Below, piece by piece: positions 20,294 to 62,867 of a stretch of 64,000 bases of DNA; positions within the stretch are counted from its first letter, which is position 1, and every line of letters starts with the position of its first letter. A model generated the notes under the pieces. The model was not told where the DNA came from. It did no database searches and worked only from the letters and a program-made list of their open reading frames with translations. Both the position numbers and the translations under genes were made by a program. The stretch comes from a virus, in the IMG/VR virus record IMGVR_UViG_3300037423_001503; one strand, given 5' to 3'.

Positions 20294-22452
20294 ATGGACG
20301 AACCTGATGCCCTCTTCCCAGCGCCGCCCGCGGGCTGGCAGTATGGTGTCGTCATGGCCGACGGGACCGTTTGGGGCTGTGGGACGAGCGAGCACGGGCG
20401 CTGGCTTCAGCGCCGACGCCTCAGCTACTCCAACGTCTCTGGCCCGTGTCTGTTGCCAGGCTCGGCGGATCTGAATCAGCGGCACCGTCGCCTCGCCCTC
20501 GGCTCTTGACAGCCGAACGCGGACTTGACTCGGAGTGGCCGCGCTGCTAGCCTTCTCGGCCGTGAACGAGAACCCCTGCACCGACTGGCTTACCGGTCCA
20601 TTCAGCGCCTACCCAGGCGACCGTGAACTTCTCGACCGCCTCGGTCTCAAGACCTACGGCTACCCATTCTCAGAGTTGATGAAGCTGGGTCAGGTGGTCT
20701 TCGACAACGAGGCCAAGGTTGACGTCTTCGTACTTGCGCTGCCGGCGCAGTCATGGAACTTCGTCATCACGCGTCCGGACGAGGAGAGCTTCAAGCTCTC
20801 GACCGGGACTGGTAAGTTCACGGAGTTCTGGCCGATGGCTGCGATGCTGGCCACCAACTGCGTCTCCGTGAGTAGGTTGTGACGTGCGTTTGACGGATGA
20901 GCATCTTCACGCGCTCGTTGCCAATAACCCCAACGACGAGGATCTTCTCCAGGAGCTACGCCAACGCGTGCGCTGGGCAGCGATCCGGGCGATCCCTGCG
21001 CGACGGGGCTACTGTAGCGCCGGCAAGCGAGTCGTGCTCGACGAGAAGGGCGCGTACTCGTCCGGGTACCCAATGCATTACGAGGAGGAGTTCACGACGT
21101 GTATGCACACAGGCAGAATCGTGTTTGACGAGCCCAACGCGCGCACTCTGCGACTCCAGGCGCTGATCGAGGAGTTGAGACCATGAAGCATCCACTGGAG
21201 GGCGCGACCGTCGCCCGCGTCGTGTTCGATGCGCGGGTCGAGACACACTACTCATGGCTAACGCCCGAAGATGACCTGCATGATCGCCTATTTGTCCGCG
21301 ACGGCCAGGTCTACGGTGAGCACGACGTGGAGCTTGCCATCGAGACCATCGACGGGCGCGTCTTCACGGCCAATACGTGTGGTTGTTGCTGCGGCATCGG
21401 CGGCGAACTCGGCGACGCCGATCGGATTCTCTGATGGCAGCCTTGACCGCCGATGAGGCCGGCGAGATCGTCGGTCTGCTAAGTTCTGTGAGGAAGATGG
21501 ACAAGGTTCGCCCTGATCCGATCCTGCTCTACGACTCAAACGGCGAGTACGTCGGACAGATCAAGTACGACACCCACAACGGTTACATGTACTACCTGCC
21601 GGGCGATCTTGGGGTGGACGAGTGAAGGGAACCTGCGGGTCGCAGGACTGGGCTTACACTGATAATGGAAACGTCATCATCTACGGTACCTGCGAGCGAG
21701 AGCCTTTTCACGAAGGACGCCACGTCGAGCACCGAGATGGAAAGCTCTGGGCCGAGTGGTCCGACCTCTCCTGGCGGCGCGCGCCCACTGAGTGGGAGAC
21801 CCGCGCCGCAGAACTAGCACAAGCCCTGCTCGACATCGCTGAGATCGCGATGCCAGATACGTACTTTGAGACCGATTCGCGCTGCCAGATGGCGCGTCAG
21901 ACACTGGAGGCGTTGGGCTATGCCGACGATGAGGAATGAAATCATCGAAGGCGCGCTAGAGATTCTGCGCGACCCAAAAAGCTGCACGAGTGGCGGTATG
22001 AGCCGACGCAGCGAGGGCCGTTACTGTGCGGCCGGCGCGCTGCTGAAGTCCGCGAGAGATCTCGGCGTCGACCTCAAGGATCATGTCGACCGCCCTACGA
22101 TCAGCCGCGCCGTGCTGGCCTTCATGGATGGCAACCGCGAGCGCACAGTCGAGATCCTTGAGCAGGCGCGAGCGTAGTGGGCTGCGTCTACTGTGATAGT
22201 CTGCTCTGCCGCTGCCCGCAACCACCTCCGCCGGATCCTGATCTCGTCGCCTGGGCGTCGGTTGGGCGCACGGGTATGTGTGTGCATTCCAGAAGAACCG
22301 AGGGCTGCGCGGGCTGTGAACTCCGACGTCTACGAGCGGCGCTGCGGCAGACCGCCCAAGACCTGATCGAGATCTCACACGCGTACTACGTCACAGATCC
22401 GCGCCGACGCCGAGCGCAGCTAATCCTAGAGGAACTCAATGACCAGAACTGA
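20294..22452 (+). other. run of small hypothetical ORFs (20294-20509, 20535-20882, 20884-21186, 21183-21434, 21434-21625, 21622-21939, 21929-22177, 22177-22452)
   Basis: Abutting or overlapping + strand ORFs; first has TACGCT-N7-ATG. Confidence 0.5.
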
Positions 22453-23578
22453 TCCCGCAGTCTTCAACCTACCCGTCGACAAGCTCCGCGAGGGCTACTA
22501 CGCCGACGCGTACTTCAACCGCGCCCGTGAACTCCTGATCGCCAACGGGCGTCATCCTCGCGTCGTGATGCAGGTCTTCCAGCGAGAGCACAGCTTCGCT
22601 GGTGGTGTCGATGAGGCCATCGCGATGCTGAAGCTCGGCGCGGGCGGCTACTACACGTGGAACTCGGCCGGCGACACCATGGTGAGGGCTCCCGGACCTG
22701 GGCGTCCCATCGGTGGCTACTGGAAGGACGGCTTCGAAGACCTCGTCGTCAAGGCGCTTCCCGAGGGCGCAGAGATCTCGCCGTGGGAGCCGGTGCTTCA
22801 GATCGAGGGCGACTACACGCTGTTTGCGCATCTTGAGACCACCATGCTGGGTGTGATGGCGCGCCGCAGCCTCGTCATGCGTAACGTCAAGGAAGCGATC
22901 GCGGCAGCGAACGGTAAGCCGATTTGGTTCTTCCCGGCTCGCCACGACCACTGGGCGGTTCAGACCGGTGACGGAATCGCCGCGCATCAGGCGGGCATTG
23001 AGGGCGTCTCCACTGACGCCGGTGCCTCGTGGTGGGGCGGACGAGGGATGGGGACGATCCCACACGCGCTGATCGCCGCCTATGGCGGTGACACCGTCAC
23101 TGCGGCGCGAGAGTTCGCCCAGCGCTACAAGGACTCCATGAACGTGACCGTGTTGGTGGACTTCCACAACGACTCCGTCCATACGGCACTTCAGGTGGCT
23201 GAGGAACTTGGCGACGACCTGTGGGGCGTCCGACTCGACACGTCCGGCAATCTCGTCGACTACGAGATCCAGCGCGATCTCAACTACGGCGAGTACGCAC
23301 CGACTGGCGTGAACCCAAGGCTCGTTGAGCTTGTCCGGAGAAGGCTTGACGATAACGGGCACGAGAACGTGAAGATCGTCGTCTCTGGCGGCTTCAAGGC
23401 CGCCAAGATCCGCGAGTTCGAGCGCCTCCATGTCCCGGTTGATGCCTATGGTGTGGGAAGCTCACTGATTCGCGGATCCAACGACTACACCGCCGACATC
23501 GTACGCACCAACGACGCGCAGTGCGCGAAGGTCGGACGATGGGAACGCGACGACTCACGGCTGGAAGTCGTTCGATGA
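22439..23578 (+). CDS. nicotinate phosphoribosyltransferase-family protein (type II PRTase)
   Basis: GYYADAYF, HLET, GTIPHALI, VLVDFHND, GVRLDTSG, IVVSGGF, AYGVGS. Confidence 0.85.
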   Translation: MTRTDPAVFNLPVDKLREGYYADAYFNRARELLIANGRHPRVVMQVFQREHSFAGGVDEAIAMLKLGAGGYYTWNSAGDTMVRAPGPGRPIGGYWKDGFEDLVVKALPEGAEISPWEPVLQIEGDYTLFAHLETTMLGVMARRSLVMRNVKEAIAAANGKPIWFFPARHDHWAVQTGDGIAAHQAGIEGVSTDAGASWWGGRGMGTIPHALIAAYGGDTVTAAREFAQRYKDSMNVTVLVDFHNDSVHTALQVAEELGDDLWGVRLDTSGNLVDYEIQRDLNYGEYAPTGVNPRLVELVRRRLDDNGHENVKIVVSGGFKAAKIREFERLHVPVDAYGVGSSLIRGSNDYTADIVRTNDAQCAKVGRWERDDSRLEVVR

Positions 23579-23757: not shown

Positions 23758-24540
23758 ATGGGTCGAGTTGAGCGCGACCGCCTTGGCGCGCGCATGAAGG
23801 AGTACGAGGCGCAGTGCAGGTTCGTGCTGCCACGCCGCACCTACACGATCCTGCGTCTCGACGGGCGCGCGTTCCACTCCTGGACCAAGGGTCTCAATCG
23901 TCCCTACGACGAAACCATGCTGACCGCGATGGCTGCGACGTCGAAGAAGCTTTGCTCGGAGATCTCGGGCGCTGTGTTCGCGTACACGCAGAGCGACGAG
24001 ATCAGCATCCTCGTTCAGGACTTCGCATCGCCGGATACGCAGCCCTGGTTTGGCGGCGTGGTGCAGAAGCTGGCTAGCGTCTCAGCGTCGGTCGCTACGG
24101 CCGAGTTCAACTCCTACTGGGAACGCCCGCCGGCCTATTTCGACGCGCGCTGCTTCACCATCGAACAGGCCGTTGAGGTTGCCAACTACTTCGTGTGGCG
24201 GCAGAAGGACGCGCGCCGCAACGCCATCAGCATGATCGCCGAGCAGCACTGGTCGGCGAACGAGCTTCACGGACGCCCAACTTCGGCGCGCCGCGAGATG
24301 CTCGAAGCTCAAGGCCTGGACCTTGATCGAGAGGACCAGCGCTTCATGATGGGCCAGGTCGTGTACCCGGTTACGGTTTTCGAGTCGGTCGTCTACACCG
24401 ACAAGCGCACCGGTGAGGAGTGCCGAACGCCTATGGTCGAACGACGCGTGCTCGATACGATCCCAGCGCCTGAGTTCCGCGCCGACCAGGGCTGGCTTGT
24501 CGAGCAGATCCACAACATTCCCGACGCTGTGGCTGCGTAA
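23758..24540 (+). CDS. Thg1-like tRNA(His) guanylyltransferase / 3'-5' polymerase
   Basis: RMKEYE, LRLDGRAFH, AYTQSDEISI, FDAR, YFVWRQKDARRNAI. Confidence 0.93.
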   Translation: MGRVERDRLGARMKEYEAQCRFVLPRRTYTILRLDGRAFHSWTKGLNRPYDETMLTAMAATSKKLCSEISGAVFAYTQSDEISILVQDFASPDTQPWFGGVVQKLASVSASVATAEFNSYWERPPAYFDARCFTIEQAVEVANYFVWRQKDARRNAISMIAEQHWSANELHGRPTSARREMLEAQGLDLDREDQRFMMGQVVYPVTVFESVVYTDKRTGEECRTPMVERRVLDTIPAPEFRADQGWLVEQIHNIPDAVAA

Positions 24541-27213
24541 TGGAAATCCAGGCGCTACTAACGATCGTACTTATTGTGCTTGCCTACCGAGCCGGACGAC
24601 GCGACGAACGAGAGGGACGATGAGGTACCCGATCAAGCTCAACGACGGCTACACCTGCCAGGGCTACGACGCCGACGGACGATACATCGTGTTCGACGAC
24701 TTGCTCGGCGAGGGCGAACGTGTAGGACCGTCTGACGGCGAAGGCAACGTACACGTGAATGCATACGTCGTGCGACGCGAGGACGGCCTGTGGGTGGAGG
24801 CGCTGTGAGCTTCACGGTGATGATCGCAGTGCATCGCGACGTACTGCCGCCCGTTCTGGGTATGCGTCACCTAGTTGGTATCAACCTGCGCGGCGGTTAC
24901 GACGCCGTTCTGGAGTTCGACAATCCGGTCTCCTTCGAGGGCACGGTCGATGAGGTTCGCCAAAGGACACGTAGTCACGTGTTTAGCGCGGCGCACTCGC
25001 ACAACGGGTTCCGTGACGCCGCCATGCTGCGGTACACACCGTTCAAGACCGGCACCGAGTGGGGACAAGCTCGCGTCGCAGCGATACCAGAGGACCGACG
25101 CTGCGAGAAGTGCGCCGGTACAGGCAATGATGTCATTCTGGCCTCCAACGGTGGCGTCGGTGAAGTCGTAATCTGTTGGCCATGTGAAGGCACTGGAAGG
25201 AAGAAGGCATGACTCTCTACGAGGCGATGCAGGTGTTGGTGCGATTCCATTCTTGGGATTTCGGTGACCGCGGACACGGCTTGTGCGATCAGACGTTGCG
25301 CGCCGAGCTTGCTCAACTAATCGACGCGGCAGACCTCGCCGACGTGCGCGTGACGCTCGGACGGTTCGTTCGCGAAGAGTTCCTGAGCGAAGATGCTCTC
25401 GACGCAGGCTACGGGCCTGAGGACGCGCTGGATTTCCTGAATTGGTTCTGCGCAGGAGATTTCCGACCGTGAGCATTTCTCATCAGGAGACACTCGACGA
25501 GATCAAGTACAACGACCCCCTGATCGAGATCAACCAGAGGTGGTCTATCTGCGACGACGCCGGCTTACCCTACAGGGTCATCAGGGTGCTATGTCGACAC
25601 CCAGATGATGGTAATGACGGACAGCGTCGTTGGGTTTGCGAAGAGCAGCCTGCACACTTGGGGTTCAAGGGAATCGGCGTCTGGGACGAGTACCAGATCA
25701 GAAGGGTGTTCAGGCCGCATGGTTAGCAGGGCTCTGGTGGTGTTGCTTTTTCTGTTTGAGGCCATTGTGCTGGTCGCGACGGGCTACGTTGCGTTCAATG
25801 CTTGGGTCTTCGGAGGCGTCGGGCCTGGTATAGCCGCCACGAGCATCGTCGTTGTCGTGGCTGTTGTGCTCGGCTGGGGGCTGTGGGAGATTTGGACGAG
25901 CTAGGCTCCTGGTACCCAGGGAAGCGTTGCCCGCGCGAGGCCGAGCTTCCCTTGGATCTCATGGTGAGAATGTTGATGGACGACCGGCGCATCGTTGCCG
26001 GTCGTGTCATGTACACGCCGCTTCAGGTCGCAGCGATCTATGCGAACTACAACCACAAGTACGTCAAGGATGAGGACACGAGAGACTTGATCCGTCGCCT
26101 ACTTCAGATCCACGGCCGAGCCGTCGACCGAAACGAACCACTACCAGAGGAGATGGAGCTTTGAAGCTCTTCATCGCTAGAACCGTCGTGTATGCGTTCT
26201 TCGTCTCAACAGTACTATTCCTGGTCATCGCCCCGATCATCAACCCGCAGGTCCTGATCTGCTACGGGATTGTCGCCTTGCTGGCCCTGGTTATTTGGGC
26301 GCTCGTTACAGTCGAGGACAACGACCGATGAACATCAACGATTGGATCGGACACATCGACGGCCTGCGACGCGAGGACGAACTTCTAGCTGTCGGCGAAT
26401 GGCACGGCTACCTAAGGGAGTTCGGTAGCGGTGGGCCGCTGCGCGGCAACTACGTGCTCGTTCGGTGGCGCACTCCTACCGTGTTGGTCTCGCACGACGA
26501 CCCCGACGAGTGCGTCAAGCTGGCGCGGCGCATCGAGCGCGCAGCGATGTGGAAGTACATCGACAACGAGGAGCGCCCCGCGGTGTGGGCGCAGGAGGCC
26601 GAGGATCAGTCGTGACCGACTACAGCGACGCCCTCGCGGTTGTCGATGATCTGATCGCGGAGGAGGCCGCGCTGGCCAACAAGATTTGTGCCGCCGATCC
26701 CATAGGCTGGACGCGCCTCGGACTGGGTACGTCGTCTGGGGCTCGACTCCATGCATTTCAGGAGGTCAAGCGGCGGCTCATCAGTCACGGCGTCCGCGAC
26801 CGTGAAGAGGCCTGCATCATCGTCCAGTGGGACGAGGGCTACGGCGAGTGGTTCGCCTATTGCCGCAAGTGCGGCAAGCGAGTCAGCAACGCCTACGCGC
26901 TGCGACACGAAGTCGACGACATGGGTCGCGTCGTCGATTGTGGCGTTGAGTTCAAGCACGTAACCACGCCCTACATTGGCGCGCTCCGCGAGGAGGTCAA
27001 GTCGCTACGCGACGACCTTACCTTCATTGATGTAGACTTTGCATCATGAGCCTCAATCAGCCGCAAGACGACCAGAAGGTGTGCCCGACCTGTAACGGCA
27101 CAGGCATGGCGTCGAAGTACGACATGGGTTGGCGCACGCTCATGCACAGCGACGAGTTCGCGCGCAAGGTCACCTGCGTGCCCTGCGCCGGCACGGGCGT
27201 CGTCTATGCGTGA
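24540..27213 (+). other. run of small hypothetical ORFs including TM peptides (24540-24623, ~25719-25904, 26161-26331) and DnaJ-type Zn fingers (24805-25212, 27046-27213)
   Basis: Coupled starts and stops; CxxCxGxG pairs; hydrophobic segments. Confidence 0.5.
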
Positions 27214-27532
27214 ACGAGTCCTCCATCTGACGCGCGATGACTTCAAGTGGGACTATTACCGCGCTAGCGGTAATGGCGGCCAGAACCGCAACAAGCGCGA
27301 CACCGCCGTACGGTGCACACATGCGCCCTCTGGTGCGGTCGGCAACGCAGCCGACGAGCGCACACAGGGCAAGAACCGTAAGCTCGCCTTCAAGCGCTGC
27401 ACCGACGACCCGAAGTTCCGTCGTTGGCTGGCCATCGAGCACGCCAGAACCCTAGTTGGCCGCGATCGATGGGTCGACCAGCAGATGCGGCCCGAGAATC
27501 TCTTGATCGAGTACGGCCCATTCGATCGTTAG
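27206..27532 (+). CDS. stand-alone RF-1 domain (GGQ) peptidyl-tRNA hydrolase / release-factor-like protein
   Basis: RASGNGGQNRNKRDTAVRCTHAPSG...ERTQGKNRKLA. Confidence 0.88.
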   Translation: MRERVLHLTRDDFKWDYYRASGNGGQNRNKRDTAVRCTHAPSGAVGNAADERTQGKNRKLAFKRCTDDPKFRRWLAIEHARTLVGRDRWVDQQMRPENLLIEYGPFDR

Positions 27533-27562
27533 AGCCTCGTCCGCGCACCTCATTTAGGACAC

Positions 27563-27613
27563 AAAGAAGCCCTGAAGGCAACCACCTTCAGGGCTTTCTT
27601 ATTGTTGTCTTTT
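27563..27613. terminator. bidirectional terminator at convergence of + and - arms
   Basis: 12-bp stem AAGCCCTGAAGG/CCTTCAGGGCTT with A/T tracts on both sides. Confidence 0.8.
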
Positions 27614-27623
27614 GTTGCCGGCC

Positions 27624-28788
27624 TTAGCCCACGATGAGCTTGCCGATCTGTTCGAGGCTCGTGACCTGCGTGTAGTTCATCAGCCCCGGCGTGCGCGACG
27701 CCTCCATCACGATGTCCTCCGAGTTGCCGTAGGCGTAGCGTACGCGAAACTCGATACCGTCGATGACGAACACGGCCTGGCGCTTGAGCTTGTTGCCGCC
27801 CATGGGCTCATGCCGAAACTTGATGTCGTTGACCTCCGCCGCCGACATGCCTAGCTGCGACTGGAGAAACGTCAGTGCGAAGTCAACGAGTTCTACGTCC
27901 TGACGCTCAAGCTCGCTCTGCTGCAACGTGACCTGTTCCTCGCGCGCGGCGATTGCTCGATCTCGAAGCGAGCGCTTCGCTCCAATGATCTGGTCGGGCG
28001 TGATGTTGGAGAAGTCGAATTCGTCAACGCTCACGATGAAGTCCTCGTAGGTCGAAGATCGCAGATTGTGCGATCGTCTGCTCAGAAAGTCCGATATGCG
28101 CGTACTCGCGGTACCCAGCGTCAGCGCAGTTCCAGCAGCGAGGCCCCAACAGAGTCTTCGGGTAGAGCTTACCCCAGAAGATGAAATCTGCCGGCGCTGA
28201 ACAGAAGCGCTTGTTGTATTCAAAGGTTGTCTCCTTTTCGGCGCGACATGTCTCACGCAATGGGACGTACACGACAGCCTTGGCCGTCACCGCATCGGGA
28301 GCAAAACTAGCCAAGTCGAACCCTCTCCTTCCGGCGCCCACACGAACACTTACCAGGGCTTTCCGTGAGCGAGCCCCAACAATCCTCGCCTGCTTCGTCG
28401 CTGTCCCAGTCAGGGCAGCGAAAGCCATCAACGGGAACCCAGTGCTGGTTCAGGATGTCGAGCATGCGCTTATAGAGGATCTCCACGACGTTGTGGTCGA
28501 CGTCATCGTAGTCGATGTCAAGATGTAGATCGCCAGGTCCAGAGATCGCGAAGCTCTTACCGAAATAGCCGCGTCCCGGCACATCGAGCAGCTTGAACGC
28601 CGCCATCAGTTGTCCTGTGAGCGTTCGGTCGGGTAGGCGCGCTCGATGATCTCGTGAATCGTGTGGTCGACCTTCGTGTCGTAGTTGTCGAACAGCCGCT
28701 TCGACCGAGGCACCGTATCGTTCTGGTGCTTGATCTCAGCGACCGCCTTACGCACTGTGTCTCCGTCTGGCGTGAAGTTGATCTTCAT
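27624..28788 (-). other. four small hypothetical ORFs (27624-28034, 28024-28314, 28307-28606, 28606-28788)
   Basis: Coupled - strand ORFs with SD sites. Confidence 0.5.
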
Positions 28789-29516
28789 CAGAATCCCATC
28801 CTGATTCGATAGACAAGGTGGTTGATTTTACCCATGTCGGGTTCATCGGGAAGCTTGGAGTAGGCGGCTGCGTTGTCGAGAGTGATCAACATGGCCTCGG
28901 CGATGGACTCGACCTTATCGAGATCCTTCTCGGCAACGCCCTTGAGCCACTCAACCTGAAGCGGCTGTAGACGCACCAAGACCTCGCCGTGCTTGAGGGC
29001 GTGGACGCCGGCCATGAGCAGTCGTAGCGTGTGAAGCTTGAACTTGGTGCGCTTGTGGTGACTCGCGCCGCGAGAACCACCAGTTCCCTCACGCGCCTTA
29101 CGAAGCTGCGAAACCGCGTAGCCGCCGTAGGTGTGAACGATGCGCTTCGAGAGGAAGAGCCCGCGGCTATTGATGAGTTGGCCGCCGGCCGAGTAGGCGT
29201 CAATCATCTGGTCATCGGACCACAGCATCTCTAGCGCTGTTGGGTTCGCCTTAGCGGCAAGGCGAGCGAAGTGCGCTAGCTCGTAGACGACGACGTCTGC
29301 GTCTTCGGCGATCGAGTTGAGTTCGAGCGCGTCCTTAGCGCCGCCCAGGGAGAGAACCCTGCGAAGCCCAGCCACGTAGACGCCTCGAAAATCGTGATCC
29401 GAGTCAGGGTTGTCGGTGCCGTAGGCACGGCTGCCGGTGCGCGAGACGAGCACGAGTTCGCCGTCTGCGGCCTCTGCGTGCGGCTCGATGAGATCAAAGA
29501 AGTCCTCAGTGGTCAT
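28788..29516 (-). CDS. DNA pol-beta-like nucleotidyltransferase (RlaP/PF10127 type)
   Basis: GSRAYGTDNPDSDHDFRGVY, ANPTALEMLW, YGGYAVSQ, HTLRLL. Confidence 0.85.
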   Translation of the reverse strand: MTTEDFFDLIEPHAEAADGELVLVSRTGSRAYGTDNPDSDHDFRGVYVAGLRRVLSLGGAKDALELNSIAEDADVVVYELAHFARLAAKANPTALEMLWSDDQMIDAYSAGGQLINSRGLFLSKRIVHTYGGYAVSQLRKAREGTGGSRGASHHKRTKFKLHTLRLLMAGVHALKHGEVLVRLQPLQVEWLKGVAEKDLDKVESIAEAMLITLDNAAAYSKLPDEPDMGKINHLVYRIRMGF

Positions 29517-30453
29517 AGTTCCTTGTAGGTCGTTGGCTGATCAAGCCAGCGTTGATGATCTTCGAGCGCGAGCATACGATCGCGTAGATTCTGCTCAGCC
29601 TCGCCGCGCGTGTAGCCCCAGCCGTAGTAGAGATCGGTTGGCTCGCGTCGCCAGAAGAACAGACCCTTGGTCTCCAGCCAGGCGTTGTAGCCATGTCCCG
29701 TCGCGGGCTCGATGGTGATCCTCTGCATCAGTACTTCCAAAGATCACAGCGGCCCGTCACGAACGTCGCGGCGAACCAGGCGATGACGTCGCGGCGCTGG
29801 CTTACGCGGCTGTAGATCCTGTTCGGCGAGATGCCGCCGAACGGGTACGGCTCGATCTGGTAACGCTCGCCGTCGATGTCTTCGAAGTAGCGCGAATATT
29901 CGTCGAGGCCGTAGCGATTGGGGTTGAAACGCGCTAGCGTTGATCGCAGTCTACGCATCGAATACGAAGCTCGACTCGGTGATGATGTCAACTACGACGT
30001 CGGCGAGTTGACCTTCGAGGCCCAGGTAGACCTCGTTGCGGAAGGTTTGCGATCCGAAGCTCTGCTCGTCCATAGCCTGCCCGATCATCTGTGCCGCGCC
30101 ATAGGCGGCGTCGCGGATGATGTTGTGGAGGCTGTTGGGGATTTCGACTGGCGGCGTCATTATCAGAATCCCATTTCGTCTAGTGATGGTCTCGGATCCG
30201 AGAGCGAGACGATCTCGTCGCCGCTACAGCCCCAGGGTTCGGCGCAGGGCACGTGATGTGGGCATGAGCGAGCAACGCGCTTCTTGCCTTGTGCCTTGAG
30301 CAGCTTGGCCCGCATAGGAGTTTTGCGCGGCTCCATGAAGAGATCGAAGTCGCGCTTACAGTCTGGGCAGAAGTCGCGCTCGTCTACCTCGTACGATTCG
30401 CCTTTGATCTCACGACCGCAACGGTCACACTCAGTGACGTGACGAGTTGCCAT
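29513..30453 (-). other. small hypothetical ORFs (29513-29740, 29728-~29958, 29951-30160, 30163-30453 Zn finger)
   Basis: Packed - strand ORFs between rtcB and the nucleotidyltransferase. Confidence 0.45.
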
Positions 30454-30454
30454 G

Positions 30455-31804
30455 TCAGTCCTTGTACTTGTCGACAACGCCGCTACCGGCCATGGCGACG
30501 CCAATCGGGCGGAGCGAGTGCTTGACTTCGACGTAGTCGGCGTGGGCGGCCAGCACTTCAGGCAATCGCTTGTAGGCCTCGGGAGCCTCGTCAGCGTCGC
30601 CGCCGCGAAGTTCGATGCCCTGTCGGCGCAGGCGCTTCTGGACAGCCTTCCAGTCGACTCGGCCCTCGCGCTCCTGAACCCACGTCTTGGACACGTCACC
30701 ATGCATACACTCGGGGCAGATCGTGAACGACGGCTCGCCGCGTCCCTGTGTGTGCCCGCAGTTGTTACACGTGACGCGCTTGCGCTGTCGACCCTTGGCC
30801 TCTGTGCGCGACATCACACGTCCCGCGCCATGCGGGGCCGACCAGATGGCCTCCTGGCCGGCGGCCCAAGCGAGCAGCCTCTTACCGGTCGTTACGAGTC
30901 CACCATCGCCGAAGCCCTCGATGATGACCGCATTCTCGCCCATCGAGCCGCCAACGAAGCCCTGCTGTCCCGGGTAGAGTGGCGTCGAGCCCTTGCGGAC
31001 CACCCAACAATCCACACCATTCACGTTTTCCAACCACGAGAAGTTGTGGTGGTTGTGAACTTCGTGCACAACGGCCGGCGATCCCAGGATCTCCAGGACC
31101 TTGTCGACCACGACGTCGCGGCCCGCGTACGCGTAGTCGCCTGCGAGGTTCATGGCCTCGATGTAGGTGTAGCCGAGCGGAGAATCCTTGTGCAGCAGCA
31201 CGGGCGGCGAGTGCATCTCACCGCCGTCGGCGTGGTCGGCGAACTCCTTGCCTTGTGCGAGCGCGAGGAAGCCGGAAGCGATCTTGTGGCCGAAGCCACG
31301 CGAGCCGAAGTGGACGCCGATCCAGATGCGATCGGTGCCTTCTTCGGCGAAGAGATCGACGTAGTGGTTGCCGGAGCCGACGGTGCCTAGCTGAGCCCGA
31401 GCGGTGCCGATGAGATCTCGAACGCCACGCATCGGAGCTTCACGATTGATGCGATCGAAGATCTCGTGGTCGACGGGCTCGTTGTTCGGACGCCCCATGC
31501 CGAAGCTGATGCGGCGCGAGATCTCGTCCATGATCTTCGGTAGATCGGCGCGGATATCGCCGAGGAAGAGGTTTGTCGAGACGGCCTTGTTGCCGCAGCC
31601 AATGTCGTAGCCCACAGAGGACGGCGAGACGTAGTCCTCATAGGCGATGACACCTCCGATGGGAGCAGAGTAGCCGAGGTGGTGATCTGCGCAGAGAACG
31701 CCAGCGACGGCGTCACCCGCGACCATGCAGGTCTCCATCTGGCGAACCGCGCCCTCATCGGGAGACATCCCATCGGGCGTGAAGATGGTTAGATTGTCAG
31801 ACAT
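30455..31804 (-). CDS. rtcB: RtcB RNA 3'-phosphate/5'-OH ligase
   Basis: DHHLGYSAPIGG, VGYDIGCG, QLGTVGSGNHY, VHFGSRGFG, HHNF, VRKGST, HGAGRVMSR, DEAPEAYK. Confidence 0.95.
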   Translation of the reverse strand: MSDNLTIFTPDGMSPDEGAVRQMETCMVAGDAVAGVLCADHHLGYSAPIGGVIAYEDYVSPSSVGYDIGCGNKAVSTNLFLGDIRADLPKIMDEISRRISFGMGRPNNEPVDHEIFDRINREAPMRGVRDLIGTARAQLGTVGSGNHYVDLFAEEGTDRIWIGVHFGSRGFGHKIASGFLALAQGKEFADHADGGEMHSPPVLLHKDSPLGYTYIEAMNLAGDYAYAGRDVVVDKVLEILGSPAVVHEVHNHHNFSWLENVNGVDCWVVRKGSTPLYPGQQGFVGGSMGENAVIIEGFGDGGLVTTGKRLLAWAAGQEAIWSAPHGAGRVMSRTEAKGRQRKRVTCNNCGHTQGRGEPSFTICPECMHGDVSKTWVQEREGRVDWKAVQKRLRRQGIELRGGDADEAPEAYKRLPEVLAAHADYVEVKHSLRPIGVAMAGSGVVDKYKD

Positions 31805-31841
31805 CGTGGCCTCCGAGTTGCGTTTCGAGGTTGATGAAGCT

Positions 31842-32014
31842 GTGCCGGTTCAGGGAGAACTCGTTGTGCGCCCGTACGCTCTTCCCCGCATTACCGCGCC
31901 TACGACCAGCGTAACGATGCCTTGGCCAGGCAGGATGCGCGTTGTGGGAGTGGCTCGTGTCCCACGGCCTCCGCGGCGGCCATTGTGGGCTCGACGAGTT
32001 CTCTGCACCGCCAC
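31842..32014 (-). ncRNA. 173-nt end-paired structured RNA of unknown family upstream of rtcB
   Basis: 5' and 3' ends pair, including perfect 10-bp GAGAACTCGT/ACGAGTTCTC; several internal hairpins; no credible ORF. Confidence 0.55.
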
Positions 32015-32057
32015 TATCCGACTCGTGATCAGCGAGTCAGCCAAACTTTGAAGATTG

Positions 32058-32182
32058 TTCCGTCGGAGGGGATCGAACCCTCTACCCTAGCAGCCGCTAG
32101 CAGGCTGATCGTCGGGTTATCGGCCCACTACTCGACACCCGGGTTCGCGACCCGCAGACGCCTTTCGCTTCCGATCGACGGC
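32058..32182 (-). ncRNA. tRNA-like RNA (~125 nt) with oversized variable region
   Basis: Canonical T arm GAGGG-TTCGATC-CCCTC, acceptor CCGTCG/CGACGG, D-like arm, GCG-loop arm, two extra hairpins. Confidence 0.65.
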
Positions 32183-32198
32183 CTGAGAAGCTTAGCAG

Positions 32199-32573
32199 CT
32201 ACTCGTCGTCTTCGTCAACCGGAAGCGAGGCGATGCGCTCAACATAGCGTTCCTGCTCGGCGATGAGGCCGTCTCGGAACCCGACCAAGGCGTCGATCAT
32301 CGTGTTGACCTTGTAGAGGTCGTTGGCGCGTGCGTCAGCGTCGGCAATATCGAAGTCGAACGAGACGCTGCGCGTGCAGTCGGCGATCTGGAGCACCATG
32401 TGTGGTCGGGCGTTCCAGCGTTCGAGCTTCTCGTCCTCGGCGTTCTTGCCGGCCTTCCAGCGAGAGGTGTCTTCGATTTCGGCGACGATCGCGCCTGTCG
32501 AGTGGTGGCCGGGCAGGTTGAGCATTGCGCGCCCGCCGTGGTAGCGGCGGCGCTGTCGTGGGCGTCGAGCCAT
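32199..32573 (-). CDS. hypothetical protein (leaderless, Arg-rich N-terminus MARRPRQRRR)
   Basis: TACTCT-N6-ATG at 32573. Confidence 0.6.
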   Translation of the reverse strand: MARRPRQRRRYHGGRAMLNLPGHHSTGAIVAEIEDTSRWKAGKNAEDEKLERWNARPHMVLQIADCTRSVSFDFDIADADARANDLYKVNTMIDALVGFRDGLIAEQERYVERIASLPVDEDDE

Positions 32574-32591
32574 CGACGAAGAGTAGCAGAA

Positions 32592-32617
32592 CGACAAAGG
32601 CCGCCTCGTGGGCGGCC
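32592..32617 (-). terminator. intrinsic terminator after lysis cassette
   Basis: GGCCGCC-CACGA-GGCGGCC followed by TTTGTCG. Confidence 0.65.
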
Positions 32618-32730
32618 GATGCCGAGATTTGGGATCACCTCCAGCTAGGAACGACCACGGCGGCGTCGGTCTTCCGTCACTGGCATCACCTCCTCCCGAA
32701 GGCGTCCGGGCGCTGCCCGGCGTGGGTGGC

Positions 32731-32997
32731 CTAGGACTCTACGTGAGGTACGCCCTTCTTGGCGATACCTCGGGAGAGCACGTACGCCACCACGGCGGCG
32801 ATGGATGAGACGTCGCCATACTTCGAGGGGAGGTGGAGAACCTGAAGCTGGGACGCGATGACCCAGGCAACGGTAAGCCAGAACTCAGTTGTGCGGTAGC
32901 CGGCCTTGGCCTCCTTGAACACCTGAGGTGCCTCGGCGATAACCTGCTCGATGGCTGAGACGTCTGGGGTGTCTGGTGTTGCTGCTGAATCAGGCAT
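32731..32997 (-). CDS. holin
   Basis: GYRTTEFWLTVA, two TM segments, basic C-terminus, adjacent to endolysins. Confidence 0.7.
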   Translation of the reverse strand: MPDSAATPDTPDVSAIEQVIAEAPQVFKEAKAGYRTTEFWLTVAWVIASQLQVLHLPSKYGDVSSIAAVVAYVLSRGIAKKGVPHVES

Positions 32998-33046: not shown

Positions 33047-33535
33047 CTAGATTCGGCCGCTGTTGAGGTACTTGGTTGCCGCGGCGTAGCCCTGAACGAT
33101 GACCAGGCGCTCGGCGCGACGACGTCGCGTCAGGCCTGCTAGCGGATGACCGCCGGCCTTGTCCCAGGCCAGGATCGCCGTCGCAGCCATGCCCCAATGG
33201 CCGCCGCGGAGAAGCTTGCCGACGCTGGTCGACGAACTCAGCGCGCCCGGACCGACGTTGTAGACGAAGCTCGTGAATCCATCGATCTGCCGCTGTGTTA
33301 GGTGTGGATTCGCAGCCAGCACTGCCGGTAGGTAGTCACGATTGAGTCGAGCGCGAAGCTGACGAAGCGCTTGGACTCTACTGACAGGCTTCGTGTGCGG
33401 GCCGACGTTCTTGGTCTCGCCGAAGCCGATCGTCCACACTCCAACCGAGTCCTGGTAAGGACGAGCGGAGAATCCCTCAAAGTGCGAAACCAGTAGGACG
33501 CCTCTCCACGAGACGCGAGGACGGCGCTTGATCAC
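33047..33535 (-). CDS. endolysin, GH24 phage lysozyme
   Basis: FEG...YQDSVGVWTIGFG (E-x8-D-x5-T), FVYNVG, GLTRRRRAER. Confidence 0.92.
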   Translation of the reverse strand: MIKRRPRVSWRGVLLVSHFEGFSARPYQDSVGVWTIGFGETKNVGPHTKPVSRVQALRQLRARLNRDYLPAVLAANPHLTQRQIDGFTSFVYNVGPGALSSSTSVGKLLRGGHWGMAATAILAWDKAGGHPLAGLTRRRRAERLVIVQGYAAATKYLNSGRI

Positions 33536-62792: not shown

Positions 62793-62863
62793 CGGGGCAC
62801 CTGGGATTCGAACCCAGAAGGCGCGGTTTTGGAGACCGGCCGGCACAACCTACGCTGTACCCC
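62793..62863 (-). tRNA. tRNA-Trp(CCA), atypical D arm
   Basis: CGGT-CTCCAAA-ACCG; canonical T arm. Confidence 0.7.
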
Positions 62864-62867
62864 ATGT

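Follow-up and report, generated by a model that had tools for sequence, protein, structure and literature searches.

Described RNA-repair neighbourhoods link RtcB both to PrfH/RFH and to RlaP (PMC6514570; for RlaP also bioRxiv 10.64898/2025.12.29.696909), and RlaP has been found in vitro to add nucleotides to cleaved tRNA halves (bioRxiv 10.64898/2025.12.29.696909). A second described arrangement, the rsr-yrlBA-rtcBA operon, places RtcB beside Ro60 and the tRNA-mimicking Y RNAs YrlA and YrlB (PMC4201824; PMC7790460), with the tRNA-like parts of YrlA permuted into the order T arm, acceptor-like stem-loop and D arm within the Ro-binding stem (PMC4201824). The stretch of DNA analysed here, 64,000 nt in length and termed the window, covers in its positions 1–62915 the end of the 139,534-bp IMG/VR virus record IMGVR_UViG_3300037423_001503 (GC 0.62; 99% complete by CheckV). 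On its minus strand a phage rtcB gene is separated from an orphan open reading frame (ORF) by a 394-nt spacer, in which an earlier note on this DNA had placed two non-coding RNAs, here called RNA 1 (125 nt) and RNA 2 (173 nt), as dedicated parts of a phage RNA-repair module. Judged by comparison with relatives, the two RNAs are instead an optional, lineage-variable leader and no core part of the system.

As in the rsr-yrlBA-rtcBA operon, non-coding sequence with a tRNA-like T arm lies just upstream of rtcB. Unlike YrlA, however, RNA 1 keeps the normal tRNA order and has no Ro-binding helix, and the phage has no gene for Ro60/TROVE or DUF2828. The remark in the earlier note that no Ro60 gene was visible could be extended from the window to the whole 99%-complete phage genome, from which both TROVE (PF05731) and DUF2828 (PF11443) are absent. 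Its statement that the RNAs do not look like standard Y RNAs also held, with no match to the YrlA model at the spacer. In a search of the whole genome with that model (RF02553) the best matches were tandem-tRNA junctions, scoring at most 26 bits against a gathering score of 69, and none lay at the rtcB spacer.

The 305-nt block and the structure of the leader

The nearest relatives, L002 and L003 (RtcB 85% and orphan ORF 81% identical), align collinearly with the window along 9.3 kb (79–83% nucleotide identity), and the only break inside the unit is a 305-nt block of the window that is replaced by 2 nt (Table 1). The relative without the block keeps rtcB, RlaP and the GGQ gene, and window-type and L003-type forms were both present in JGI sample 3300037313. 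By this comparison the block is dispensable for the module. In five further lineages, L096, L097, L110, L118 and the P0010 contig (RtcB 70–74% identical), rtcB is preceded by 0–36 nt. L101, which belongs to the same identity group and has the only homologue of RNA 1 that was detected, carries a 198-nt leader. This leader and the window have in common the promoter-like site, the box AGGCGYCTGC and, up to AATCTTCAAAG, the 3' part of RNA 1 (6/300 shuffles score as well). The T loop has been lost from the L101 leader, which folds as a rod (z −3.9). This rod, at L101:1394–1482 (−34.3 kcal/mol, z −3.93), has at its end the AATCTTCAAAG box, which in the window comes after RNA 1. These alignments weakly suggest that an RNA 1-like leader may have been ancestral and lost in L003, and that its tRNA shape was not maintained.

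The proposal that both RNAs are dedicated parts of the module found no support in this comparison, with the block missing from L002/L003, a short upstream region in five lineages, a rod in L101 and neither Ro60 nor YrlA present. The structural conservation next to rtcB on which the proposal had been staked is largely missing among relatives. Contigs of the window's own strain have an identical spacer and so show no variation in RNA 1. Presence and covariation in relatives, the marks of a conserved structured non-coding RNA, were not found, the sequence being absent from L002/L003 and differently folded in L101. The RNAs match no known family, yet they are without the conservation that a new family needs.

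The spacer is regarded as non-coding because it shows no codon-position GC signal (0.59/0.62/0.65, versus 0.66/0.45/0.79 in rtcB). Neither a gene nor an endonuclease remnant was found in the 305-nt block by Pfam searches of its three ORFs, by tblastx in six frames against the genome and all loci, or by GC at each codon position. RNA 1 was compared with a tRNA pattern consisting of a 5-bp T stem, a TTCRANY loop and then an acceptor 3' strand pairing with the 5' end, and it has these parts with 6 bp only in the closure. The T arm, GAGGG-TTCGATC-CCCTC at 32082–32066, is followed by CGACGG (32065–32060), which pairs with CCGTCG (32181–32176). The minimum-free-energy fold of a 129-nt stretch around RNA 1 gives the same acceptor-like closure, and the possible D-like arm contains GG. 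RNA 1 also has a G1:A72 mismatch, an A at position 8 and a C-G pair at 3:70, and it has no 7-nt anticodon loop and no encoded CCA. Its fold energy (z −0.35) is no more stable than that of shuffled sequences, and the whole 394-nt spacer gives z +0.61. The T arm and the 6-bp closure of the tRNA-shaped RNA proposed here were thus borne out, whereas unusual stability and a match to a tRNA, tmRNA or YrlA model were not. The acceptor and T arm of RNA 1 are closest to the phage's tRNA-Leu(UAG), with 24/31 positions shared versus a mean of 16.3 (standard deviation 2.8), which is suggestive only. In alignments of RNA 1 to the phage Leu tRNAs the likeness was confined to the ends, to tRNA-Leu(UAG), and was marginal.

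Searches against known families gave nothing for the spacer. Rfam 15 at E ≤ 10 on 31600–32800 returned only chance-level matches to Sr006, CRISPR-DR28 and mir-9201, all far below gathering, and at the gathering threshold nothing relevant to the spacer was found across the window. The suggested search of the spacer for Y RNA/YrlA, 6S, tmRNA and SRP accordingly yielded no family at E ≤ 10. The tRNA model RF00005 had no spacer match at E ≤ 10, nor did one appear in a whole-genome scan, which returned only true tRNAs. ARAGORN at default settings called no gene in the spacer, and with introns, lowered thresholds, mitochondrial and tmRNA modes it produced only junk models below default; at the 80% threshold with 'intron', RNA 1 gave only poor tRNA models. 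No tmRNA (RF00023) was matched at the spacer by default ARAGORN or by Rfam, and the 3:70 pair of RNA 1 is not the G3:U70 of tmRNA. A 'permuted tmRNA' offered by ARAGORN at the 80% threshold was rejected, since the model does not use the T arm.

The strongest structure of the region is a 20-bp hairpin at the end of the orphan ORF (Table 1), of which L003 has a weaker version. Its 3' arm is also the 5' strand and 'D arm' of RNA 1, and in any read-through transcript the hairpin would capture this strand. The hairpin would also explain the retention of GCCGTCG in L003 without its supposed 3' partner. Its possible roles are those of an operator, an RNase III site or a structure at the 3' end of an mRNA. 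The short hairpin proposed downstream of RNA 1 proved real and stable, more so than the other noted RNAs. For RNA 2, the closing helix is present, but its fold energy is not exceptional (z −1.64 for a 177-nt stretch, with 14/200 shuffles folding as well) and it did not turn out to be a conserved structured RNA, there being no homologue in any relative or fetched locus and no Rfam match. There is no support for RNA 2 as an RNA gene. An exact 17-nt repeat between RNA 2 and 33195–33211 was rejected as meaningful; the second copy lies antisense within a lysozyme gene, and the repeat is therefore put down to chance.

The earlier note described a single unit behind one promoter at the head of the orphan ORF. 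The TGCTACTCT-N6-ATG arrangement is indeed found there (ATG at 32573), directly after a terminator-like hairpin at 32617–32599, but it is not the sole candidate, since a second promoter-like site lies at 32218–32189. TGCTANNCT occurs seven times versus 3.6 expected, with six of the seven on the minus strand. The second site, TTGACG-N18-TGCTAAGCT, has aligned, conserved counterparts in L003 and L101, and L094 shares its −10 part. Because this conserved site precedes RNA 1, rtcB probably has its own promoter.

Table 1. Coordinates and properties of the features discussed, in window positions
Feature	Position	Strand	Remarks
Intrinsic-terminator-like hairpin	32599..32617	-	7 G-C pairs then TTTGTCGTTC; closes upstream unit before orphan ORF; site also in L003
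Orphan ORF	32199..32573	-	124 aa from ATG 32573; preceded by TGCTACTCT-N6; conserved upstream neighbour of rtcB
20-bp hairpin/inverted repeat	32158..32236	-	-40.7 kcal/mol, z -4.41, 0/200 shuffles as stable; covers orphan ORF stop and promoter-like site
Promoter-like site	32189..32218	-	TTGACG-N18-(TGC)TAAGCT, i.e. TTGACG-N18-TGCTAAGCT; just upstream of RNA 1; start expected near 32183
RNA 1, 125-nt tRNA-derived element	32058..32182	-	6-bp acceptor-like closure, possible D arm, 5-bp/5-nt stub, ~57-nt two-hairpin region, canonical T arm
305-nt block	31848..32152	-	replaced by 2 nt in L002/L003; contains 3' three-quarters of RNA 1, hairpin and nearly all of RNA 2
Hairpin	32018..32040	-	8 bp with 7-nt loop, no U tract; -11.4 kcal/mol, z -3.27
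RNA 2, 173-nt GC-rich stretch	31842..32014	-	15-nt closing-helix arms, 87% complementary
rtcB	30455..31804	-	449 aa; Shine-Dalgarno sequence GGAGG at 31814-31810; Pfam RtcB 1.3e-57
RlaP-family Pol-beta nucleotidyltransferase	28788..29516	-	242 aa; Pfam PF10127 1.1e-30
Stand-alone GGQ/RF-1-domain protein	27206..27532	+	108 aa; Pfam RF-1 8.8e-17; phrog_3122 5e-26; converges on rtcB unit
Thg1-like 3'-5' nucleotidyltransferase	23758..24540	+	260 aa; Pfam Thg1 3.1e-29

tRNA-like sequences upstream of rtcB in other lineages

Outside called tRNAs, the strict T-arm motif was found about seven times in 1.1 Mb of unbiased strand, corresponding to about one per 160 kb by chance. In 1.2 kb of sense-strand rtcB spacers about 0.008 occurrences would be expected, and the motif was observed in both the window and L094. 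The rtcB spacer of L014 has two relaxed versions of the T arm beside a GIY-YIG gene. For a strict T arm on the sense strand of the 394-nt spacer, with a strand directly behind it that pairs with the start of the RNA, the expectation falls to about 0.003. T-arm elements recur before rtcB far above chance, and rtcB is therefore really, if more loosely, associated with tRNA-like sequences.

The contrary view, that nothing is there and that the T arm, closing helices and hairpins arose by chance in GC-rich non-coding DNA, can draw on the ordinary fold z-scores and on an equally perfect T-arm motif lying antisense in a helicase-like gene at 2238. The exact T-arm/acceptor 21-mer also has four matches in species genomes, two of them in truA coding sequence, one in a Bdellovibrionota metagenome-assembled genome (MAG) and one in Mycolicibacterium. 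None of the four shares more of the 305-nt block, and the 21-mer has no match in viral contigs. The low expectation for a T arm with its pairing strand in the spacer, together with the recurrence of the same kind of element in L094 and L014, makes chance a very improbable explanation.

In the Bdellovibrionota MAG (L093:7440–7520) the match belongs to a 76-nt tRNA-like element, GCCGTCG...GGGTTCGATCCCCTC-CGACGGC, right after a tRNA-Tyr gene. Its acceptor and T-arm sequence are the same as those of RNA 1, it is without an anticodon loop, and it is not called by ARAGORN.

The elements at L094:1223–1283 and L014:3480–3543 are homologous to each other (0/300 shuffles), 62–64 nt in length and anticodon-less. 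In each of these mini-tRNAs, which lie just upstream of rtcB, the acceptor has 7 bp with G3:U70 and A73; a D-like hairpin, a stub of the form AGCG..CGCT and a T arm complete the element. That of L094 directly follows a TGTGTATACT −10-like site. Both have weak end-to-end mascRNA matches, and the L094 element also has a weak tmRNA match with the mRNA domain deleted. With the tRNA-like domain of tmRNA and with mascRNA they share the 7-bp acceptor with G3:U70 and A73 and the T arm, the stub replacing the anticodon arm. However, their scores against mascRNA and tmRNA are far below gathering (15–18 bits versus 42.5; 7–8 bits versus 47), and they have no mRNA-like domain. RNA 1 of the window differs further from the tmRNA domain, being without G3:U70, and default ARAGORN finds no tmRNA there. 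Pattern scans of viral contigs, with the L094/L014 motif and with the 3' box shared by RNA 1 and L101, returned only ordinary tRNAs or random coding matches.

Intact tRNAs abut rtcB in more distant phages, namely L007/L036 (Gln), L040 and L056 (Pro) and L065 (Ile, Lys). The present phage resembles such tRNA-rich phages in that it has about 37 tRNAs, debris in its tRNA array and a leader element whose ends are nearest to its own tRNA-Leu(UAG). In contrast to their rtcB-adjacent tRNAs, RNA 1, with its length of 125 nt, lacks a 7-nt anticodon loop, carries the G1:A72 mismatch and A8, and fails both ARAGORN and the Rfam tRNA model.

In L014 the interval from the orphan ORF to rtcB has received a gene for a 96-aa GIY-YIG protein (L014:3545–3835), next to the two tRNA-like elements. 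Since this gene sits there, the site between the orphan ORF and rtcB is considered an insertion hot spot.

Origin and possible role of RNA 1

The reading that we favour, with moderate confidence, is that the spacer is an accessory, lineage-variable and tRNA-derived rtcB leader behind its own promoter-like site, and that the genes form a system without dedicated RNAs. The 394-nt leader would be transcribed from the conserved promoter-like site, and in the window's lineage it would carry RNA 1 as a tRNA-derived module, together with a hairpin and with RNA 2, about 200 nt of GC-rich sequence specific to the lineage. The derivation of RNA 1 from a tRNA follows from the excess of T arms, the tRNAs abutting rtcB, the tRNA debris in the array and the homology to L101. 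RNA 1 is most likely what is left of a gene for a tRNA or a tRNA-like RNA formerly beside rtcB, where intact tRNAs still stand in the more distant phages. If it is functional, its likeliest role would be that of a cis-acting element of the rtcB mRNA, for RNase P/Z-type processing or for stabilisation.

A different origin would make the 305-nt block a functionless scar left by mobile or foreign DNA, either the remains of a homing-endonuclease cassette with tRNA-array fragments or a captured piece of phage or host. The GIY-YIG gene beside two tRNA-like pieces at the same intergenic site in L014 fits this, as do the variability of the site among relatives, the clean boundaries of the single-copy block and the nearness of the RNA 1 acceptor and T arm to the phage's tRNA-Leu(UAG). 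However, no endonuclease remnant or coding similarity was found in any of six frames, and the flanks of the block have neither terminal repeats nor a target duplication. The block has no second copy in the genome and no match in the fetched loci or in viral, metagenome-derived or genome collections. Part of it is moreover homologous to the L101 leader, and ancestry is favoured over insertion for this reason. The scar is therefore rather unlikely as an explanation.

RNA 1, perhaps with RNA 2, might also be a functional trans-acting tRNA mimic of the repair module, serving as a decoy against tRNA nucleases of the host, as a scaffold or activator of RtcB/RlaP, or as a partner of the GGQ protein, in analogy with YrlA and Y RNA. 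It would suit such a molecule that RNA 1 lies right behind a promoter-like site and combines a canonical T arm with an acceptor closure and a GG-containing D-like arm. tRNA-like elements precede rtcB in L014 and L094 as well, including the anticodon-less G3:U70 mini-tRNAs, and the T arm is intact though the flanks have diverged. Set against this, RNA 1 is missing from the nearest and from most relatives while the genes persist, and its L101 homologue does not keep the fold. No YrlA, tmRNA or tRNA model matches, and no Ro60 or DUF2828 partner is encoded in the phage genome. Its energy is ordinary, its 5' strand has a far stronger alternative partner, and both G3:U70 and an encoded CCA are lacking. 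A mimic acting in trans is thus possible but unlikely.

Several observations weigh against the accessory leader that we prefer. Although the flanks differ by about 20% from the nearest relative, RNA 1 still has a perfect T arm and an intact acceptor closure; a long-dead relic should have decayed as in L101, and this is a hint of selection or of a recent acquisition. At this same place tRNA-like elements have been kept independently by three lineages, which would not be expected if the leader were pure junk. Whether the 305-nt difference arose by loss in L003 or by gain in the window is judged from one marginal L101 alignment (6/300 shuffles). The promoter-like site, too, is a consensus match only and was not called in a strict sigma-70 scan. 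The main argument for function is the intact T arm in diverged flanks, and the natural deletion variant together with the absence from most relatives is the main argument against a dedicated role.

RNA-repair genes and genome context

The gene order proposed for the minus strand was borne out, running from the orphan ORF through the 394-nt spacer, rtcB and four small ORFs to RlaP, and Pfam agreed with the assignment of both the convergent GGQ gene and the Thg1-like gene on the plus strand (Table 1). Scores are well above gathering for RtcB (PF01139, 196 bits versus 27), RlaP (PF10127, 107.6 bits versus 23) and Thg1 (PF04446, 102 bits versus 29.2), which places each protein in its family. For the GGQ protein, PrfH/RFH was defined by the equivalog score and the presence of a GGQ and a codon-recognition domain, and ArfB by the equivalog score and a GGQ domain with a basic C-terminal tail. 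Assignment to PrfH/RFH (TIGR03072) was rejected at 54.8 bits against a cut-off of 166.65, with the match to the 108-aa protein limited to residues 7–65 (the GGQ domain), and assignment to ArfB (NF006718) at 35.4 bits against an equivalog cut-off of 100. The best family for the protein is the phage family phrog_3122.

Clear matches to RtcB, RlaP, the RF-1 domain and Thg1, alongside the documented RtcB–PrfH and RtcB–RlaP associations, uphold the idea of a phage RNA-repair module, and a gene set for RNA repair and ribosome rescue of an already known kind is supported. From the functions of their families, RtcB would seal the 2',3'-cyclic-phosphate/5'-OH breaks left by host anticodon or rRNA nucleases, RlaP would restore nucleotides trimmed off the break, Thg1 would mend the 5' ends of tRNA and the small GGQ protein would release peptidyl-tRNA from jammed ribosomes, while the phage tRNAs may make up for lost ones. 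The RtcB-centred repair neighbourhoods of Burroughs & Aravind (2016), as relayed in PMC6514570, combine RtcB with PrfH/RFH, RlaP and Thg1-type enzymes, and in the phage, a mobile genome, RtcB, RlaP-family and GGQ-domain genes are likewise clustered. The phage cluster is conserved in the nearest relative, and an RF-1 gene is convergent again in L096. In contrast to the described neighbourhoods, the GGQ protein of the phage is a lone domain of 108 aa that is neither PrfH nor ArfB. RtcA and RtcR are absent, and the set is spread over two strands and interspersed with small ORFs of no assigned function.

The orphan ORF has no match in Pfam, NCBIfam or PHROG. Homologues lie immediately upstream of rtcB in L003, L014, L096, L097 and L110, abutting or overlapping rtcB in three lineages, and the protein and its homologues share the invariant motifs LN..G..T..VAE and C.R. 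An AlphaFold2 model (predicted local distance difference test 84.8) has three strands and a long helix, and a Foldseek comparison with the PDB gave no fold match. Nothing in Pfam, NCBIfam, PHROG or Foldseek tied the ORF to archease or another known RtcB cofactor. The orphan protein is regarded as a candidate for a link to RtcB.

Blastn of the region against 50,697 phage records found no cultured phage with similar DNA, and the RtcB of the closest cultured phage is less than 49% identical. ARAGORN called 26 tRNAs within the record, plus ten where the window extends beyond it; the phage has about 37 tRNA genes. The count of at least 18 tRNAs given for the window was matched by 16 ARAGORN tRNAs, one that is cut and one missed Trp-like tRNA. 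This likely tRNA-Trp(CCA), at about 62795–62867 on the minus strand, was missed by ARAGORN and Rfam in a 164-nt gap between tRNA-Arg(CCT) and tRNA-His. Its acceptor is 7 bp long, its anticodon loop reads CTCCAAA, and its T arm is good and its D arm odd. tRNA half-fragments with intact T arms occur as debris inside the phage's own tRNA array. Outside the window, a 140-nt array gap at G000:C1:11085–11224 (minus strand) has a piece like a tRNA 3' half (T arm and acceptor strand), followed about 60 nt later by a piece like a 5' half (acceptor strand and D arm). The acceptor strands are not complementary, and the pieces are therefore regarded as tRNA debris and not as a permuted gene; the same gap is the genome's top YrlA match, a false one. 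A nicotinate phosphoribosyltransferase-like gene (22439–23578, plus strand; NCBIfam PRK07188 1e-95, slightly below cut-off) adjoins Thg1.

With this gene set the known RtcB/RlaP/release-factor repair systems gain a further uncultivated phage rich in tRNAs, which alone changes little. The useful result is a negative one: neither of the two RNAs belongs to the fixed parts of the system, and a natural variant without them occurs in the same sample. This pair of phages is a ready-made test of the effect of a tRNA-like leader on rtcB. It is conceivable, although we think it quite improbable from the sequences at hand, that phages of this clade repeatedly place anticodon-less tRNA mimics, such as RNA 1 and the L094/L014 mini-tRNAs, at the head of the rtcB transcript to act with RtcB, RlaP and the GGQ protein. 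If so, the mimics could be decoys against tRNA nucleases of the host, damage sensors controlling rtcB expression or chargeable acceptors for ribosome rescue, and would form a Ro60-independent counterpart of the link between Y RNA and RtcB. The recurrence of tRNA-like pieces before rtcB, especially of the G3:U70 mini-tRNAs of L094 and L014, merits a wider survey.

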